From assembly GCA_030640325.1 (NCBI GenBank), contig DAOWJM010000080.1:1-39744 (forward strand): a DNA stretch of 39,744 nucleotides, read 5' to 3'. The translations under genes were made by a program, and so were the position numbers. The notes beneath the pieces were generated by a model, which worked only from the letters and a program-made list of their open reading frames with translations, did not search any database and was not told the origin of the DNA. Positions 8,719-28,477 of this stretch are shown here, piece after piece; position 1 is the first letter of the stretch, and each line of letters starts with the position of its first letter. This DNA comes from Dehalococcoidia bacterium. GTDB lineage: Bacteria; Chloroflexota; Dehalococcoidia; Dehalococcoidales; BS750m-G39.

Positions 8719-8795
8719 TGGTGGGCGATACTGGACTTGAACCAGTGACCTCTGCGATGTCAACGCAGTGCTCTAACCAACTGAGCTAACCGCCC
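8719..8795 (-). tRNA. tRNA-Val (GAC)
   Basis: Hand-folded canonical cloverleaf: GGGCGGT..GCTC AGTTGGTTA GAGC..CTGCG TTGACAT CGCAG..ACTGG TTCAAGT CCAGT ATCGCCC A CCA. 77 nt with CCA encoded. Confidence 0.95.
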
Positions 8796-15214: not shown

Positions 15215-15784
15215 ATGAGAACCTTTTTCCGCGACATTCTAATAACGCTAATACTGGCAATAGTCATCTTCTTCCTGCTACAAGTCACAGTTCAGAGTTT
15301 TATTATAGTAGAGCGTTGCATGGAGCCCGAGTTTCAAGAAGGAGAACGACTATTAGTTAATAAAGTGGTTTATTATTTCCACGAACCTGAAAGGGGCGAT
15401 GTGATTATACTACACCCGCCCTTTAACCCCGAAGCAGTCTATATCAAACGCATCATTGCTTTACCCGGCGATACGGTAGAGGTGAAAGAGGGGGCGGTAT
15501 ATGTTAACGACACCGAGCTAGACGAGCCCTATATTAAAGAGCCTCCCACCTATACCTACGACCAGGAAGAAATCCCTGAGAATGAATACTTTGTTCTCGG
15601 CGACAACCGCAATAATGCCAATGATTCCCATAAAGGCTGGACAGTGCCCCGCGAGAATATAATTGGCAAAGCCTGGCTATCATTCTGGCCACTAAAGGAA
15701 TGGGGGCTGGTTCCTCGCTACCCACTACAGGAGCAACTTGCCAGCTCTATCAAGCACATAACTGCCCTCTTAGGGGTAGATTGA
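15215..15784 (+). CDS. lepB: signal peptidase I (with Cys at the nucleophile position)
   Basis: N-terminal TM segment. Boxes RGDVII, YIKRIIALPGDTV and FVLGDNRNNANDSH are present. Box B reads CMEPEF instead of SM.PT. Confidence 0.85.
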   Translation: MRTFFRDILITLILAIVIFFLLQVTVQSFIIVERCMEPEFQEGERLLVNKVVYYFHEPERGDVIILHPPFNPEAVYIKRIIALPGDTVEVKEGAVYVNDTELDEPYIKEPPTYTYDQEEIPENEYFVLGDNRNNANDSHKGWTVPRENIIGKAWLSFWPLKEWGLVPRYPLQEQLASSIKHITALLGVD

Positions 15785-15789
15785 AGGGG

Positions 15790-16365
15790 GTGAGGTCGAT
15801 AGAAATAGAAAATGTAGAGGAAATCTTCGAAAAATCGGGGGCTATACTAAAAGGGCACTTCCTGCTCACCTCCGGCCTGCACTCCCCGGTCTATTGGGAA
15901 AAGTTCCGAGTTTTGCAATTCCCCCACTACACCCAGCAGCTTTGTCGGCTGATTGCTAACCACTTTCGGAAGCAAAAAATCCAGGTAGTGGCTGGACCAA
16001 CAACTGGTGGCATTATCCTAGCTTTTGAAGTGGCTAGACAGTTAGGAGTAAGGGGTATATTCGCTGAAAAGGAAGGCGACCAAGAGCGGGCTTTCAGGCG
16101 GGGCTTCAACATTGACCCCGGCGAGCGAGTCCTTATCGTGGATGATATTCTCACCACCGGCAGCTCCATACGCCAAGTTATGGCGGCAGCGACCAGGCAA
16201 GGGGGCATAATAATAGGCATAGGGGTATTGGTTGACCGCTCCGAGCAAAAGATGGAATTTGGTGTCCCCCTTTTTAGCTGTCACCGGACAGAAACCATAA
16301 CCTACCCAGCACAGGATTGCCCTCTGTGTGCTGCCAAAATCCCCCTGGTCAAACCCGGCGGCTAA
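15790..16365 (+). CDS. pyrE: orotate phosphoribosyltransferase (start uncertain: GTG 15790, TTG 15781 or ATG 15700)
   Basis: ILKGHFLLTSGLHSPVYWEKF and the PRPP loop VLIVDDILTTGSS. ATG 15700 would overlap lepB by 85 nt. Confidence 0.8.
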   Translation: MRSIEIENVEEIFEKSGAILKGHFLLTSGLHSPVYWEKFRVLQFPHYTQQLCRLIANHFRKQKIQVVAGPTTGGIILAFEVARQLGVRGIFAEKEGDQERAFRRGFNIDPGERVLIVDDILTTGSSIRQVMAAATRQGGIIIGIGVLVDRSEQKMEFGVPLFSCHRTETITYPAQDCPLCAAKIPLVKPGG

Positions 16366-16382: not shown

Positions 16383-16411
16383 TTGACAAAACGATAGCAA
16401 GCTCATATACT
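16383..16411 (+). promoter_or_regulatory. putative pan operon promoter (TTGACA-17-TATACT)
   Basis: TTGACA at 16383-16388 and TATACT at 16406-16411. Confidence 0.55.
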
Positions 16412-16418
16412 AAAATTG

Positions 16419-16535
16419 ATAATAGTTATTAGCTATCGACCCATAGGGCGGTAAGCTTTTTAAGAAGTTTTTTAATAACCCGGGTCGCTTGGATCGGATA
16501 CGACCGAGACGGCAAAAATAGAGTTTGTATTTGGG
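16419..16535 (+). ncRNA. structured 5' leader of the pan operon with two look-alike bulged-A hairpins (candidate pan-motif-like cis-regulator)
   Basis: Hairpin 16434-16453 and hairpin 16488-16508 share one architecture: 5 bp (third pair T/G), a bulged A, 3 bp, then a 3-4 nt loop. See findings. Confidence 0.45.
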
Positions 16536-16570
16536 ATGCCTTCTCTGGCTGTGTCGGAGAAGGCATTTTT
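16536..16570 (+). terminator. intrinsic terminator/attenuator inside the pan leader
   Basis: 10-bp stem ATGCCTTCTC / GAGAAGGCAT, an 11-nt loop, then TTTT. It ends 15-24 nt before the first pan-operon start codon. Confidence 0.65.
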
Positions 16571-16584
16571 AGTATAAATCTGGC

Positions 16585-17457
16585 TTGGCTAAAATGCTCA
16601 AATTGGGATTCATCGGAGCAGGAACTGTAGGCACTGCCCTCTCTGTGAGGCTGAACAGCAAGGGCTATCCCATAGTAGCAGTATCCAGCCGAAGCCGAAC
16701 CTCAGCCCAAAATCTGGCACGGGCAGTTGATGGCTGCCAGGTGTCCGATAATAACCAAGGTGTGGCTGACAATGCTGAGCTTATCTTCATTACTACCTCC
16801 GATGATGCTATCGCCTCGGTAGCTTCTCAAATACAGTGGCACCCCGGACAGAGTGTGGTTCATTGCAGCGGTGCTGCCTCCACAGACATTCTGCAACCAG
16901 CCAGGGAATTCGGGGCACAGGTTGGTGCCTTCCACCCCCTGCAGACCTTCGCCAGTGCCAAACAAGCCATAGAAAATATACCGGGCTCAACCTTTGCCCT
17001 TGAGGCTGAGGAGCCTTTGCTAAATATACTCAAGGATATGGCTTTTGCCCTTGATGGTCACTGGGTAGAGCTGAAGGCAAGCGATAAGGTAATCTATCAC
17101 GCCTCAGCAGTCATCGCCTGCAACTATATGGTAACCGTGGTCAAGCTAGCCACTGACCTGTGGCAAAGCTTCGCTGTCCCACCGCATCAAGCTACCCAGG
17201 CATTGCTGCCACTGTTGCGAGGGACACTCAATAACATTGATACCGTGGGAATACCCCAATGCCTCACCGGACCAATCGCTCGCGGAGACATCGGGACTAT
17301 TAAGAAGCACCTTGATGCTTTGCAAGAAAAAGTCCCTTCCCTGCTCCCCACCTACCGAGAGCTTGGTCTGCAGACTATCCCCATTGCCCTGGCAAAGGGA
17401 AAAATAAATCAACATCAGGCACAGGAGCTAAGGGCTGTCCTAGAACAACCCGACTAA
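16585..17457 (+). CDS. Rossmann-fold / DUF2520 oxidoreductase, likely the ketopantoate reductase of this operon (PanG-type, tentative)
   Basis: LGFIGAGTVGTALS dinucleotide fold. C-terminal CLTGPIARGDIGTIKKHLDAL is typical of DUF2520. It is the first gene of the panD-panB-panC operon. Start is TTG 16585 or ATG 16594. Confidence 0.75.
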   Translation: MAKMLKLGFIGAGTVGTALSVRLNSKGYPIVAVSSRSRTSAQNLARAVDGCQVSDNNQGVADNAELIFITTSDDAIASVASQIQWHPGQSVVHCSGAASTDILQPAREFGAQVGAFHPLQTFASAKQAIENIPGSTFALEAEEPLLNILKDMAFALDGHWVELKASDKVIYHASAVIACNYMVTVVKLATDLWQSFAVPPHQATQALLPLLRGTLNNIDTVGIPQCLTGPIARGDIGTIKKHLDALQEKVPSLLPTYRELGLQTIPIALAKGKINQHQAQELRAVLEQPD

Positions 17458-17482
17458 ATAAAAAATAGTTATGGAGGGTGTG

Positions 17483-17860
17483 ATGAGAGTAATGCTTAAA
17501 AGCAAAATCCACCGAGCTCATGTCACCGAGGTCAATATCGACTATGAAGGGAGCATTACCATTGACAAGAGGCTTATGCAAGAAGCCGACATTCTTCCTT
17601 ATGAGCAGGTTCAAGTGCTAAATATCAACAATGGTGCCCGTTTTGAGACCTATGCTATTGAAGCTGAGCCTGATAGTGGGGAGATTGGCATCCAGGGGGC
17701 TGCTGCCAGATTAGCCACCGTCGGAGACACGGTAATCATCCTTTCCTACTGTCAGGTTGAGGATAAAGAAGCCCATAATTTCGCCCCCAAATTGGTATAT
17801 GTTGATGACAAAAACGCCATCACTGAAACCAAGCGAGTGGTCGGGGCTACACCATTCTAG
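17483..17860 (+). CDS. panD: aspartate 1-decarboxylase
   Basis: [25 protein letters not shown] includes the Gly-Ser self-cleavage site. SD GGAGGG at 17473-17478 favours ATG 17483. Confidence 0.93.
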
Positions 17861-17871
17861 GAGAGGAATAA

Positions 17872-18702
17872 ATGCGTATAACCATAAATCAGATAAAAGA
17901 GATGAAGCAAAGGGGCGAGAAAATCACCATGCTCACCGCCTATGATTATTCCACCGCCAAGCTCGTTGATGAGGCGGGGATACCGCTAATTCTGGTGGGA
18001 GATAGTCTGGGCATGGTAGTCCTGGGTTACGAATCAACCATACCGGTAACTATGGAGGAGATGCTGCACCATACCAAGGCTGTGGTTAGAGGCACCAAAC
18101 AGGCGATGGTAATTGGTGATATGCCTTTTATGACCTACCACATAAGTGTTGATGATGCCCTATATAATGCCGCCCGTTTTATTCAGGAGGGTGGCGCCCA
18201 GGCAGTTAAGCTTGAGGGTGGTGTAACTGTGGCGGAAAAGGTAAGCCGAATTGTGGAATGCGGCATTCCGGTTATGGGTCACATAGGACTTACCCCCCAG
18301 TCAATCTACCAACTAGGTGGCTTCACGGTGCAGGGTAAAACCCAGGAGGCAGCCGCCAGGCTGCTTGAAGACGCCCGGGCTCTGGAGGAGGCTGGAGCCT
18401 TTTCCATTGTCCTGGAGACAGTCCCCGCCCAGCTAGCCAAGATAATCACGGAAAAGGTCAACGTCCCCACCATCGGCATTGGTGCCGGCATAGACTGCGA
18501 TGGTCAGGTTCAGGTCATCAACGACATTCTGGGTTCGTTCACCGATTTTGTCCCCAAGCACGCCAAGCAATATGCCAAGCTCACCGATATTATCTCCAAA
18601 GCAGTCACTCAATATCACGACGAGGTGAAAGCGGGCAGCTTCCCCACCGAGAAGCAAAGCTTCTCTATAGATGAAAGCGTATTGGCTGAGCTAACCAAAT
18701 AG
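17872..18702 (+). CDS. panB: 3-methyl-2-oxobutanoate hydroxymethyltransferase
   Basis: [49 protein letters not shown]. Confidence 0.95.
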
Positions 18703-18752
18703 TCCACTTTTTCTGAAGAAACCAATTCTCCCCCAATCCTTTTACATCTATT

Positions 18753-18876
18753 CCCACCCGCCTCCCTTAAGGAGGGGGACAAAAGGAAGAGTTTTAGAGA
18801 GGCGAAGCCTCTAATGGGCGGGTGGGTGGGAAGAAAGACACCTAAAAATGGAGGGACAAAGGGGGTGAGGTAGATA
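18753..18876 (+). repeat. GC-rich hairpin repeat element, copy 2, inserted between panB and panC
   Basis: 10-bp long-range stem CCCACCCGCC (18753-18762) / GGCGGGTGGG (18817-18826). Inner hairpin AGAGGC GAA GCCTCT (18798-18812). Terminal module AAGGGGGTGAGGTAGATA (18859-18876). Confidence 0.7.
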
Positions 18877-18885
18877 ACATTCTCT

Positions 18886-19719
18886 ATGATGGTCGTTGAA
18901 ACAATAGCCGATATGAAAAGGTTGAGGCTCAAGCTCACCGAGCCGGTTGGCTTTGTTCCCACCATGGGCTATCTCCACGAGGGTCATCTGGCTCTAGTCA
19001 GACAAGCCAGAGCAGAAAACCCCTCGGTAGTGGTTAGCATCTTTGTTAATCCCACCCAGTTTGGTCAAGAGGAGGACTTTACTAAATACCCCCGCGACCC
19101 CCAGCGTGACCTGGCTCTGCTACAAAAGGAACGGGTTGATATTGTCTTTATGCCCTCAGTAGATAAGATGTATCCGCCAAAGTTCAAGAACTGGGTGGAG
19201 GTTGGGAAGGTCGCCGAAAGATTGGAGGGTGCTTCCCGCCCCGGTCATTTCAGGGGTGTTGCCACAGTGGTTGCCCGGCTATTTGACATCATCCAGCCAG
19301 ATAGAGCCTACTTCGGGCAGAAGGATGCCCAGCAGCTACTGGTTATCAAAAAGATGGTGGTTGACCTTAATCTGAGCGTGGAGATAGTCGCCGTGCCCAC
19401 GGTGCGTGAGCCCGACGGTCTAGCGATGAGCAGTCGCAATACCTACCTCAATCCTGAAGAACGAAAGGCAGCATTAGTTTTATATCAGGCACTTAGCTTG
19501 GCTCAAAAGCTATGGTCGCAGGGTGAAAAGGATGCTGAGCGCCTGCGCCAAGAGATGACAGACCTCATTCAGAAACAGCCCTTGGCGGAAATTGATTATA
19601 TCAGCATAGCCGACGCCGAGACCCTGGACGAACTGGACACAGTCAGACCCCCGGCACTGGTGTCACTGGCAGTAAAAATCGGCAAGACGAGGTTGATAGA
19701 TAATGTTGTGGTGGGATAA
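18886..19719 (+). CDS. panC: pantoate--beta-alanine ligase
   Basis: GFVPTMGYLHEGHLALVRQA (HIGH-type motif) and the remainder typical of PanC. Confidence 0.95.
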   Translation: MMVVETIADMKRLRLKLTEPVGFVPTMGYLHEGHLALVRQARAENPSVVVSIFVNPTQFGQEEDFTKYPRDPQRDLALLQKERVDIVFMPSVDKMYPPKFKNWVEVGKVAERLEGASRPGHFRGVATVVARLFDIIQPDRAYFGQKDAQQLLVIKKMVVDLNLSVEIVAVPTVREPDGLAMSSRNTYLNPEERKAALVLYQALSLAQKLWSQGEKDAERLRQEMTDLIQKQPLAEIDYISIADAETLDELDTVRPPALVSLAVKIGKTRLIDNVVVG

Positions 19720-19838: not shown

Positions 19839-20570
19839 GTGTTTCGTTATACATTACTAGTTTTAGCATGGATTTTCCTTTTGGTAATTAACATCATTTT
19901 GTGGGTTAATAATGGTAGCCCAAATATTGTAGCGTTAGGCATCCTAGCGACGCTCTCCATCGTACCCGTAGTTAATTGGCTAAAAATAGGCAATTTGTTT
20001 GAGTTTCGAAAGAAAGCCGGTGATGAAGTTACTAGCATGCAAGATAGAATAGTCAATATAGGTCATTTAAACCTTGAATTAACGAGCGAAGAAGCAGCAA
20101 GAGCTTTTGCTAAAAGTCTTGTTCCCGAATCCAAAGAGGAATTGACTGAAGAAAACAAACAATTAATAGAATTTATTTATAATGCTGACCAAGCAATTGC
20201 ATCAATACTACCGTTACTACGGATATGGTATATTGCTGTCGAGGTAAAAATTAAAAATAAACCAGCGATGCCTAAAGAGCTGGCGAAAGTTATAGACATA
20301 GATGCTCTGTCACTCGTCAACGAAGTCAAAGCAAATGCCGATAAAATATTAACACTTAATGATAGTGACAAAAAACTTGAAGAATTACTAAAACCCGCTG
20401 AAAGACTGATAACGTTGCGGCAAGCTATTGACGAAAATACGGCTTTGCCACCTGCTATGGAAGAAGCCAAGAAACTAGTTCGCGACGTCTATAAGGCTAC
20501 AACTTTTCTAACAGGTGCAGTTTCGCAAGCAGTGGCAATTTTACTTACGCCACCTCGCAGAAAAACCTGA
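19839..20570 (+). CDS. hypothetical membrane protein (2 N-terminal TM segments plus a helical soluble domain), AT-rich orphan
   Basis: GTG start. Two hydrophobic helices are followed by about 170 aa of charged helical sequence. I recognise no family. Local G+C is visibly lower than in the flanks. Confidence 0.5.
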   Translation: MFRYTLLVLAWIFLLVINIILWVNNGSPNIVALGILATLSIVPVVNWLKIGNLFEFRKKAGDEVTSMQDRIVNIGHLNLELTSEEAARAFAKSLVPESKEELTEENKQLIEFIYNADQAIASILPLLRIWYIAVEVKIKNKPAMPKELAKVIDIDALSLVNEVKANADKILTLNDSDKKLEELLKPAERLITLRQAIDENTALPPAMEEAKKLVRDVYKATTFLTGAVSQAVAILLTPPRRKT

Positions 20571-22268: not shown

Positions 22269-22344
<76 letters not shown>

Positions 22345-22352
22345 AAATAAAA

Positions 22353-22427
22353 GCGGAAGTGGCTCAGCGGTAGAGCATCTCCTTGCCAAGGAGAGGGTCA
22401 CGAGTTCGAATCTCGTCTTCCGCTCCA
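22353..22427 (+). tRNA. tRNA-Gly (GCC)
   Basis: GCGGAAG..TCTCC TTGCCAA GGAGA..ACGAG TTCGAAT CTCGT CTTCCGC T CCA. Confidence 0.95.
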
Positions 22428-22439
22428 TTTGGGTTATGA

Positions 22440-22525
22440 GCCGAAGTGGCGGAATAGGCAGACGCGGCAGTCTCAAAAACTGTTGGAGGGCGACCTCCAT
22501 GTCGGTTCGAGCCCGACCTTCGGCA
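22440..22525 (+). tRNA. tRNA-Leu (CAA), type II, no encoded CCA
   Basis: GCCGAAG..GCAGT CTCAAAA ACTGT, variable arm GGAGG GCGA CCTCC, GTCGG TTCGAGC CCGAC CTTCGGC A. Confidence 0.93.
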
Positions 22526-22535
22526 CTATATAGAA

Positions 22536-22609
22536 TGCCGAGTTGTGTAGTGGTAGCACGGGGGACTTTGGATCCCTTAGCCCTGGTTCGAATCCAGGCT
22601 CGGCAGCCA
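22536..22609 (+). tRNA. tRNA-Gln (UUG)
   Basis: TGCCGAG..GGGGA CTTTGGA TCCCT..CCTGG TTCGAAT CCAGG CTCGGCA G CCA. The U1:A72 pair is typical of bacterial tRNA-Gln. Confidence 0.93.
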
Positions 22610-28402: not shown

Positions 28403-28477
28403 TCCCCGATAGCTCAATGGTAGAGCGGGCGGCTGTTAACCGCTAGGTTCGAGGTTCGAGTCCTCGTCGGGGAGCCA
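28403..28477 (+). tRNA. tRNA-Asn (GUU)
   Basis: TCCCCGA TA GCTC AATGGTA GAGC G GGCGG CTGTTAA CCGCT AGGTT CGAGG TTCGAGT CCTCG TCGGGGA G CCA. Confidence 0.95.

Follow-up and report, generated by a model that had tools for sequence, protein, structure and literature searches.

The pan RNA motif (Rfam RF01749) was described by Weinberg et al. (2010, Genome Biol 11:R31; PMC2864571) in Chloroflexi, Firmicutes and Deltaproteobacteria, where it is tied to pan genes. Most members are tandem stems with two conserved bulged adenosines each, and the deltaproteobacterial members consist of a single hairpin. The discoverers favoured a binding site for a dimeric protein; for a Geobacter pan RNA, the same work lists in-line probing assays in which pantothenate, CoA and beta-alanine were supplied at 1 mM, and no binding is reported (PMC2864571). 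In the searchable literature, 16 years on, no ligand is reported for the motif and no defined OFF-switch logic was found; beyond the 2010 description, only transcriptome papers merely naming the motif were retrieved.

Two groups of described leaders are of particular relevance here. The three Dehalococcoides leaders of the 2010 seed alignment (NC_002936.3/736022-736109, NC_007356.1/635641-635728 and NC_009455.1/714742-714829) contain a first hairpin UGCCACCGACC...GGCGGUGAGC, a second hairpin CCGCUUGGAUCG...CGGCCGAGACGG and a GAUGCCUUCUUCGG...CCGGGGAGGGCAUC hairpin which, as in other members, the alignment marks as a predicted terminator; their first gene encodes a Rossmann/DUF2520 protein. The Firmicute leaders (Bacillus subtilis panB and relatives) also display tandem bulged-A hairpins; the terminator after these has ATCCTTCTG as its 5' arm. 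A second hairpin, which sequesters the Shine-Dalgarno sequence, follows this terminator and their first gene is panB.

The region under study lies at positions 16383-16584 of a window of 39,744 nucleotides, the whole stretch of DNA that was analysed. It is an ordinary member of the catalogued pan motif and, as such, already known. The RF01749 model matches positions 16431-16516 over its full length (model positions 1-92 of 92) with 43.5 bits against a gathering score of 36.2, the E-value being 2e-4 when the whole window is searched and 2e-6 when the search covers 401 nt. The gathering score is also passed by 7 of 20 sampled orthologous loci, with 40.7-48.2 bits. Each stem carries two bulged adenosines (A16439 and A16454, A16493 and A16509), the tandem arrangement is present and a DUF2520-panD-panB-panC gene set is located directly 3' of the leader. 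The host fits the phylum range of the motif as well, since the nearest proteins and loci carry the names Dehalococcoidia, Dehalococcoidales or Chloroflexota. The consensus purine tail GAaGG, which follows hairpin 2 in RF01749, is replaced here by GGCAAA at the same model positions. This tail belongs to the Rfam consensus and is not stated as defining by the authors of the motif; it is not needed for membership because the Dehalococcoides seed members also do without it (GGUAAA). Nothing essential differs from the family, and the layout is that of the Dehalococcoides seed leaders with the same type of first gene. The present leader differs from these by its origin in an uncultured cold-seep or marine-sediment Dehalococcoidia and by a clean T-run, which is poor in strain 195. 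The features of the locus are collected in Table 1.

Table 1. Positions of the leader elements and of the downstream genes in the window
Feature	Positions	Strand	Description
Sigma-70-type promoter	16383-16411	+	-35 box TTGACA 16383-16388, 17-nt spacer, -10 box TATACT 16406-16411
pan hairpin 1	16431-16457	+	3 bp, bulged A16454 (3' strand), 5 bp, bulged A16439 (5' strand), 3 bp, loop ATA
Linker 1	16458-16483	+	A/T-rich; variable in length and sequence
pan hairpin 2	16484-16513	+	4-bp outer helix, bulged A16509, 5 bp, bulged A16493, 3 bp, loop GATA
Candidate switching (antiterminator) strand GAGACGGCA	16506-16514	+	Hairpin 2 3' strand and one further base; nearly identical to GAGAAGGCA, the terminator 3' arm
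Linker 2	16515-16532	+	Variable; alternative pairing possible between TAGAG (16519-16523) and CTCTG in the 5' arm of the terminator
Intrinsic terminator	16533-16570	+	Core stem 16536-16548 with 16554-16566, optional G-U extension from 16533, T-run 16566-16570
Terminator 5' arm TGCCTTCTC	16537-16545	+	Complementary to both 16506-16514 and 16557-16565
First gene, Rossmann-like and DUF2520 oxidoreductase	16594-17457	+	Predicted PanG-type ketopantoate reductase, 287 aa; Pfam PF10727, PF10728; homologues 287 aa
panD, aspartate 1-decarboxylase	17471-17860	+	PF02261, E 2.8e-49
panB, ketopantoate hydroxymethyltransferase	17872-18702	+	PF02548, E 8.8e-120
panC, pantoate-beta-alanine ligase	18886-19719	+	PF02569, E 4.6e-111

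A model working on the sequence alone (hereafter the sequence-only reading) had identified a pan motif in front of a pantothenate operon, and this identification is borne out by the Rfam score and by the conservation and covariation of both hairpins in orthologous leaders. The facts which it gave about the motif (three phyla, bulged adenosines, an often tandem arrangement, no ligand demonstrated) agree with the original description (PMC2864571). Its promoter, its terminator arms followed by TTTT and its distance of 15-24 nt to the first gene also correspond to the sequence at every coordinate. The two hairpins had been placed at 16434-16453 and 16488-16508; these coordinates and the T/G wobble at the third pair hold, while the hairpins themselves are longer than described. 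Only one bulged adenosine per hairpin had been noticed, the second one being located on the 3' strand (A16454 and A16509), and further outer pairs were missed, 3 in hairpin 1 and 4 in hairpin 2. With these elements added, each hairpin has the pan design with 'two bulged A'. Finally, the terminator had been presented as an explicit expression platform added to the motif, a claim that does not stand since the annotated alignment of 2010 already marks the homologous hairpin as a predicted terminator.

The promoter matches 11 of the 12 consensus positions, and 3 promoter-like sites are found in the region against 0.9 +/- 0.9 in shuffled sequences. Transcription would be expected to start near 16418. 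The two hairpins, separated by 54 nt from start to start, fold with energies of -10.7 kcal/mol (z -3.0) for hairpin 1 and -11.7 kcal/mol (z -4.3) for hairpin 2, and no shuffled sequence folds as well in either case. In the central helix, each strand consists of 5 nt followed by a bulged A, so that a local two-fold symmetry can be read from the sequence. The terminator, with arms ATGCCTTCTC (16536-16545) and GAGAAGGCAT (16557-16566) and TTTT through 16570, reaches -24.2 kcal/mol (z -6.7), again unequalled by any shuffled sequence; its stem is extendable to 13-17 bp with a loop of 3-5 nt. The predicted stem followed by TTTTT corresponds to the usual definition of an intrinsic terminator, a G+C-rich stem-loop followed by a U-run. 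A simple terminator scan of the region did not list the terminator at 16533-16570, probably because the T-run is absorbed when the stem is extended greedily by G-T pairs, and a custom finder was positive in 73 of 74 leaders. From the end of the T-run, 15 nt separate the terminator from the first possible start codon (TTG 16585) and 24 nt from the ATG at 16594 used by the homologues.

The comparative analysis was based on 80 orthologous loci, 74 Dehalococcoidia leaders at the species level and about 64 Firmicute leaders. The promoter, the two hairpins and the terminator recur as a unit: hairpin 2 is found in 73 of the 80 orthologous loci and a strict descriptor is satisfied by both hairpins in 66. 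Upon alignment of the 74 leaders these elements stand in register, TTGACA and a TATAMT-like -10 box being present in every one, and the linkers drift. RNAalifold recovers all three helices with the bulge columns retained, and adds the pair G16484-C16513 to hairpin 2. Within the helices 95.4% of the cells are paired, against 32-49% in slid controls. Compensatory changes are observed at 23 of 36 pairs, and none of 500 shuffles reaches the observed covariation value on any of five measures. Such changes affect 10 of the 11 pairs of hairpin 1 and 10 of the 13 pairs of the terminator stem. Hairpin 2 is near-invariant, with stems 96-97% identical and 6 of its 12 pairs never varying. Mean column identity falls to 0.54 in linker 1, where the distance from one hairpin to the next varies by about 20-33 nt, and to 0.55 across 16515-16535. 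The 5' arm of the terminator is more conserved than its 3' arm (mean identity 0.93 versus 0.82).

The strand GAGACGGCA nearly copies the 3' arm of the terminator and can therefore pair with the 5' arm as an antiterminator, 8 of the 9 positions of 16506-16514 being paired with 16537-16545. The sole freely covarying position of the 5' arm, 16541 (T/C), is the one which is mismatched in this antiterminator. Pairing potential is retained in 96.1% of the cells, against 45-69% when the strands are slid, and the percentage paired is reached by 39 of 500 shuffles. The two strands are near-invariant: compensatory changes are confined to one pair in 3 cells (GGTA with NACC), and changes without compensation are present in about 8 leaders (GACGAC tails, TACC arms). 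The antiterminator pairing is kept through invariance, with no real covariation support. The best upstream partner of the 5' arm is the 3' strand or tail of hairpin 2 in 66 of 73 leaders, versus about 17% expected. The same relationship recurs with a different sequence in the independent Firmicute set, which was fetched by the hairpin-1 pattern only. There, CAGAGGGAT, formed by the outer 3' strand of hairpin 2 and its tail, is complementary to the 5' arm ATCCTTCTG, with CAGAAGGAT in addition, and in 48 of 63 leaders the hairpin 2 3' strand or tail holds the best partner of the 5' arm (about 5% expected). The proposed switch logic is the same and a CCTTCT core is common to the terminator arms of both groups. 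In Firmicutes only the outer 3 bp of hairpin 2 need to open and the AGGGAT tail is invariant, whereas the switching strand is situated more inside hairpin 2 in the Dehalococcoidia lineage. The Firmicutes further differ in the Shine-Dalgarno-sequestering hairpin after the terminator and in having panB rather than the DUF2520 gene as first gene.

Folding of nascent transcripts was carried out with nearest-neighbour energies, kinetics being ignored. In the absence of any constraint the outer helix of hairpin 2 forms with a median probability of 0.21 in Dehalococcoidia and 0.02 in Firmicutes, and the 5' arm is paired upstream with a probability of 0.56 and 0.72, respectively. Clamping hairpin 2 reduces the latter values to 0.33 and 0.47 at a cost of 1.4 and 0.6 kcal/mol; for the present leader, upstream pairing decreases from 0.73 to 0.46 at a cost of 2.2 kcal/mol. 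The explicit antiterminator of this leader is weaker (-8.9 kcal/mol) than hairpin 2, and in its free nascent fold the core of hairpin 2 is kept and the 5' arm is sequestered partly through linker 2 instead, by the alternative TAGAG/CTCTG pairing. Another reading, according to which hairpin 2 always beats the antiterminator and the default state is OFF, was rejected on the basis of these partition-function folds, where the outer helix is predominantly open and only about 1-2 kcal/mol separates the two states.

On balance, we lean towards a pan leader that acts as a transcription attenuator of the panG-panD-panB-panC operon, by means of an effector-driven OFF switch between hairpin 2 and the terminator. 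A transcript started at the conserved promoter would carry the two bulged-A hairpins, then the strong intrinsic terminator, and the 3' strand of hairpin 2 would compete with the 3' arm of the terminator for the 5' arm. Its position beyond a bulged A probably leaves the outer helix of hairpin 2 with marginal stability only. In the free nascent RNA the 5' arm would consequently be captured, the terminator would fail and the operon would be read through. An effector signalling pantothenate/CoA sufficiency may then bind the bulged-A hairpins, hold hairpin 2 closed and free the 5' arm. Since the two states lie so close in energy, an effector closing hairpin 2 would cause termination: the terminator would form and transcription would halt about 24 nt upstream of the start codon, which amounts to feedback repression.

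The most speculative step of this model is the nature of the effector, for which a protein is somewhat more likely than a small molecule. It would be a symmetric oligomer contributing one subunit pair per hairpin. The simplicity of the hairpins, the variable linker, the local two-fold symmetry, the view of the discoverers and the lack of reported binding for metabolites all point toward a protein. Known precedents are PyrR in pyr leaders and TRAP in trp, where an effector-loaded protein binds the leader RNA, blocks the antiterminator and lets the terminator form. The proposed working of the pan leader is similar, although no protein is known for pan and the gene upstream of this leader is pyrE, not pyrR. 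The preference for a protein is slight because tandem small hairpins with a variable linker proved to be a true riboswitch in the case of guanidine-II. Sequence words of the organism were found only in DNA runs, from cold-seep and marine-sediment metagenomes, and were absent from the three RNA runs examined.

The candidates for such a protein found next to the operon were all rejected. The upstream phosphoribosyltransferase was considered as a PyrR-like RNA-binding regulator and is PyrE (TIGR01367, 194 bits versus a cutoff of 150), which is present upstream in only 22 of 80 loci. The weak match to the Rfam PyrR site (24.1 bits versus a gathering score of 54) reflects a generic terminator only. 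The open reading frame at 19839-20570 (orf243), envisaged as an operon-encoded regulator, has no family match. No candidate RNA-binding protein was found beside the operon, where this sole extra open reading frame has no homologue in any of the 80 related loci. As to the operon itself, DUF2520 proteins have been linked to the Francisella PanG (PMC4572677), and the PanG of B. subtilis (YkpB) is a PanE-like protein outside the DUF2520 family (PMC11487621).

The same expression platform could also be operated by a direct metabolite riboswitch, whose hairpins, singly or docked, would bind a compound of the pantothenate/CoA pathway without any protein. This explanation is judged rather unlikely: no binding was claimed for the three compounds assayed on the Geobacter RNA (PMC2864571), and no ligand has emerged in the searchable literature since. 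The logic of the platform does suit a classical OFF riboswitch with a ligand stabilising the closing helix, and no protein gene of the operon is obviously co-inherited with the motif, which occurs in three phyla. The RNA has a very simple structure in which few conserved bases are unpaired, and the deltaproteobacterial members manage with one hairpin; hairpin 2 is on the other hand conserved in sequence as well as in structure, as for a binding pocket, and two bulged adenosines on opposite strands, with 5 bp between them, could come to face one another over a groove. Guanidine-II (mini-ykkC) provides a precedent, with two small tandem hairpins joined by a linker variable in length and sequence, long suspected of binding a protein. 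Its hairpins dimerise loop to loop around the ligand by way of conserved loop bases (ACGR), whereas pan conserves the bulged adenosines and stem sequences and its loops vary.

A far less probable explanation is that no regulation takes place, the terminator being a leaky insulator or the terminator of pyrE, and the hairpins being elements for the stability or processing of the pan mRNA. At equilibrium the full leader does fold into hairpin 1, hairpin 2 and the terminator, and pyrE ends only 18 nt upstream of the -35 box, so that pyrE transcripts would also meet the terminator. However, a promoter conserved in 74 of 74 leaders separates pyrE from the hairpins, and the leader persists in spite of the scarcity of pyrE upstream. 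Its presence moreover tracks the pan operon, since 71 loci have both the leader and downstream pan genes, 5 have neither and none has the leader without pan genes, in keeping with the three phyla in which the motif is associated with pan genes. From a generic terminator or stabiliser one would not expect hairpin 2 and the 5' arm to be near-invariant amid drifting linkers.

The weakest explanation, attenuation by translation of a 13-codon leader peptide (ATG 16536 to TAA 16577, MPSLAVSEKAFLV) which overlaps and would control the terminator, could account for the conservation of the latter, for the ATG, GTG or TTG found in that column in 59 of 74 leaders and for the coincidence of the variable position 16541 with a third codon position (CCT/CCC), but it is rejected as highly implausible on account of non-start codons in the other 15 leaders, of 58 distinct peptides with no common stop, many running into the main gene, and of 1-nt loop indels that shift the frame, the ATG moreover lacking a preceding Shine-Dalgarno sequence and the peptide a run of regulatory codons or any link to pantothenate.

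Returning to the attenuator model, a broader version can be put forward with some hesitation, at slightly less than even confidence. One switching strand, made of the outer-helix 3' strand of hairpin 2 and a few following bases, may be common to the whole pan motif, and an effector at the bulged adenosines would always close that helix. In Chloroflexi and Firmicutes this strand would act as an antiterminator capturing the conserved CCTTCT-containing terminator arm; in single hairpins of the Anaeromyxobacter type, the same tail would be the Shine-Dalgarno sequence (GGAGG, which the published alignment shows about 8 nt upstream of the AUG). In 98% of leaders, only 5 weak pairs, but a conserved potential, can link hairpin 1 (3' strand) to hairpin 2 (5' strand), so that the tandem hairpins might also form a trp-like chain (1:2, 3:4, 5:6 against 2:3, 4:5).

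For annotation purposes, the consequence is routine: the region should be entered as a pan (RF01749) leader with an attenuator terminator, in front of a complete four-enzyme pantothenate operon. The comparison of leaders narrows the mechanism to a testable model in which closure of hairpin 2 would lead to termination. This model points to the bases to be mutated and to the RNA to be used as bait, including the tractable panB leader of B. subtilis. The pan motif is still an orphan since 2010, and the identity of its effector would reveal how vitamin B5 and CoA are sensed in many anaerobes and Firmicutes.

The leader in front of the pantothenate operon matches the Rfam model of the pan motif over its full length and is followed by pan genes, which confirms the identity proposed in the sequence-only reading, where a scan with this model had been suggested. 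The promoter agrees exactly with that reading, and the arms and T-run of the terminator lie where it had placed them. The design of the two hairpins was also correctly described, but their extent was underestimated (P1, 16434-16453; P2, 16488-16508): neither the further bulged A in the 3' strand nor the outer helix beyond it had been noticed. Both hairpins are in fact built of an outer helix of 3-4 bp, a bulged A, 5 bp, a bulged A, 3 bp and a loop. The hairpins, the terminator and the leader as a whole are all predicted to be far more stable than shuffled versions. The terminator is absent from the output of a simple terminator scan, which we attribute to a G-T stem extension that uses up the T-run.

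Coordinates, scores and predicted fold energies (z relative to shuffled sequence) of the features in the window
Feature	Position	Strand	Details
tRNA gene, isolated	8722-8795	-	
Signal-peptidase ORF	15215-15784		overlapped by the longest pyrE ORF by 85 nt (region 15700-15811)
Promoter	16383-16411	+	-35 TTGACA 16383-16388; 17-nt spacer; -10 TATACT 16406-16411; 11/12 consensus positions
Rfam pan (RF01749) match	16431-16516	+	all 92 model positions; 43.5 bits, gathering score 36.2; E = 2e-6 (local search)
Hairpin 1	16431-16457		second bulged A, A16454; -10.7 kcal/mol, z -3.0
Hairpin 2	16484-16513		second bulged A, A16509; -11.7 kcal/mol, z -4.3
Hairpin-1/hairpin-2 cross-pairing	16452-16456 with 16487-16491		
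Candidate antiterminator	16506-16514 with 16537-16545		GAGACGGCA with TGCCTTCTC
Terminator	16533-16570	+	5' arm ATGCCTTCTC 16536-16545; 3' arm GAGAAGGCAT 16557-16566; T-run end 16570; -24.2 kcal/mol, z -6.7
Entire leader			-62.4 kcal/mol, z -5.9
13-codon ORF	16536-16577		MPSLAVSEKAFLV
First gene	16594 (ATG)	+	TTG 16585 permitted by ORF list; ATG taken as real start since homologues have 287 aa
panB-panC gap	18703-18885		183 nt
Inverted repeat in gap	18754-18763 with about 18817-18827		CCCACCCGCC with GGGCGGGTGGG
ORF after panC	19839-20570		243 aa
tRNA genes, cluster of four	22269-22606		within 340 nt
tRNA gene, isolated	28403-28474		

The observation is thus correct and the element is of a known kind. 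The pan motif was published in 2010, and the annotated Stockholm alignment of its discoverers contains Dehalococcoides members (NC_002936, NC_007356, NC_009455) with both hairpins, in which the GAUGCCUUCUUCGG...CCGGGGAGGGCAUC hairpin is labeled a predicted transcription terminator and precedes a Rossmann-type first gene; a terminator is annotated in other members as well, such as Caldicellulosiruptor NC_009437 (PMC2864571). Both hairpins, the terminator hairpin and the Rossmann-type first gene are common to these leaders and to that of the window. The record of 2010 therefore already covers the motif, its terminator and gene context, and its occurrence in the Dehalococcoidia class; the explicit expression platform is not the addition it had been taken for. 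A literature search retrieved no later work on the mechanism of the motif, which two Firmicute transcriptome papers simply list.

In order to assess conservation, 80 orthologous loci (54-89% protein identity) were collected by scanning species-representative genomes. The closest relatives of the first gene belong to uncultured Dehalococcoidia/Dehalococcoidales, and the window DNA is found in cold-seep and marine-sediment metagenomes. Using a structural descriptor, hairpin 2 was located upstream of the gene in 73/80 loci and both hairpins in 66/80; all 73 hairpin-2 loci display a hairpin and T-run before the start codon. Of 20 loci sampled, 7 scored above the threshold of the Rfam model. Promoter, hairpins and terminator constitute alignable blocks in the Dehalococcoidia-type leaders, with a mean column identity of 0.96-0.97 for hairpin 2, whereas both linkers (0.54 and 0.55) and the post-terminator spacer (0.47) drift. 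Unguided RNAalifold recovered all three helices with their bulges, and the named structure is paired in 95.4% of cells, against 32-49% in slid controls. The covariation sought in related leaders was found for the structure taken as a whole, with compensatory changes in 23 of 36 pairs and none of 500 shuffles reaching the observed value on any measure, though it is free in hairpin 1 and the terminator while hairpin 2 is close to invariant. Four loci labeled Deltaproteobacteria or Calditrichales (L019, L022, L023, L074) carry a Dehalococcoidia-type leader and a DUF2520 protein 77-78% identical to that of the window; these contigs are probably mis-binned.

The leader tracks the operon and not the neighbourhood: leader and downstream pan genes coexist in 71 loci, the leader is absent from five loci whose DUF2520 gene has no pan genes after it, and no locus displays the leader without pan genes. 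The gene upstream in the window is pyrE, of which the leader terminator could have been the unregulated terminator; this explanation was rejected because the internal promoter is conserved and the leader persists where pyrE is missing (pyrE is upstream in only 22/80 loci). The 13-codon ORF exactly covers the terminator hairpin but was dismissed as a conserved coding unit, with a non-start codon in 15 of 74 leaders, 58 distinct peptides and a frame shifted by loop indels.

The downstream gene order is Rossmann/DUF2520 oxidoreductase, panD, panB, panC. PMC4572677, citing Miller et al. 2013, places DUF2520 oxidoreductases with the ketopantoate reductases of the Francisella PanG type; if so, the operon would encode the complete pantothenate pathway. 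The true pyrE start is probably near 15811, since the NCBIfam match begins at residue 38 of the longest ORF. Among relatives, the distance between panB and panC varies from -1 to about 2030 nt; in the window, this gap contains a G+C-rich inverted repeat with an ordinary fold (z -0.9) and no second copy elsewhere in the window. Pieces of it recur in four related loci (L019, L022, L024, L040) at unrelated positions on both strands, and the element resembles a small dispersed repeat or an insertion hot spot. The ORF following panC, hydrophobic at its N-terminus, matches no Pfam or NCBIfam family, and none of the 80 related loci contains a homologue of it. Either the gene is restricted to this strain or the ORF is not a gene.

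The hairpin-2 3' strand, extended by one base, is a near copy of the terminator 3' arm GAGAAGGCA, and the 5' arm is therefore able to pair with either. Across the 74 leaders, 96.1% of cells allow this antiterminator pairing, against 45-69% in slid registers. Changes were compensatory in three cases (GGTA with NACC) and uncompensated in about eight; the pairing is unprovable by covariation because both strands barely vary. The only freely covarying position of the 5' arm (T/C at 16541) is exactly the antiterminator mismatch, and the mean column identity of this arm (0.93) exceeds that of its 3' partner (0.82). In a best-partner test over all upstream 10-mers, the one scoring highest against the 5' arm lay in the 3' strand or tail of hairpin 2 in 66/73 leaders (about 17% expected). 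The hairpin-1 3' strand, including its bulged A, can likewise pair with the hairpin-2 5' strand in 98% of leaders (1-59% in slid registers); these five weak pairs, beyond the reach of covariation, would make a trp-like series of alternative pairings possible.

An independent set was obtained by a metagenome scan on the Firmicute hairpin-1 pattern, leaving hairpin 2 and everything downstream unselected. The outer 3' strand of hairpin 2 and the invariant tail read CAGAGGGAT and the terminator arms ATCCTTCTG and CAGAAGGAT: the relationship between strand and arm is that of the window, with a different sequence. The best-partner test pointed to it in 48/63 leaders (about 5% expected), and the B. 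subtilis panB leader of the 2010 alignment displays it too. In L096 and L141, of a Firmicute sub-lineage, GAGAAAACC replaces the invariant AGGGAT tail, and TTTTCTGCCCT, just before and within the terminator 5' arm, can pair with the new tail, which may represent a lineage-level compensatory change. In the single hairpins of Anaeromyxobacter, the equivalent tail is GGAGG, about 8 nt before AUG (PMC2864571), suggesting that in translational versions this strand acts as the Shine-Dalgarno sequence. A second conserved element lies about 20-60 nt past the terminator in Firmicute leaders (L083, L087, L088 and most of L081-L156). This element, a pyrimidine stretch (e.g. CATCTCCTCTCTCC) with complementarity to the panB Shine-Dalgarno sequence AAGGAGGAG, is a possible translational layer; being similar to the terminator 5' arm, it could also pair with the AGAGGGAT tail.

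In the window, hairpin 2 (-11.7 kcal/mol) is more stable than the explicit antiterminator (-8.9 kcal/mol). The objection that hairpin 2 would outcompete the antiterminator and prevent switching was dropped once nascent transcripts spanning hairpin 2 to the terminator loop had been folded with a partition function. According to these model energies, the median probability of the hairpin-2 outer helix is 0.21 in Dehalococcoidia and 0.02 in Firmicutes. Clamping hairpin 2 lowers the median probability of upstream pairing of the 5' arm from 0.56 to 0.33 and from 0.72 to 0.47, respectively, at a median cost of 1.4 and 0.6 kcal/mol (window: 0.73 to 0.46, 2.2 kcal/mol). On these figures, the two states are predicted to be nearly balanced, as needed for a switch. 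The modeled logic is most likely feedback repression: effector binding at the bulged-A hairpins would close hairpin 2 and release the 5' arm, the terminator would form and transcription would halt about 24 nt before the start codon.

We lean slightly toward a protein effector rather than a small molecule. The inter-hairpin linker varies in length and sequence, and each strand of the central helix consists of five bases then a bulged A, conferring local two-fold symmetry. To the discoverers, the simplicity of the structure and its dimeric arrangement suggested a site for a dimeric protein; they list pantothenate, CoA and beta-alanine as tested, with binding not reported (PMC2864571). Against a protein, no candidate gene accompanies the operon in the 80 related loci. 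The tandem mini-hairpins of guanidine-II, moreover, proved to be a true riboswitch. The sole added value of the present analysis is a sharper, testable model for a still-orphan RNA motif.
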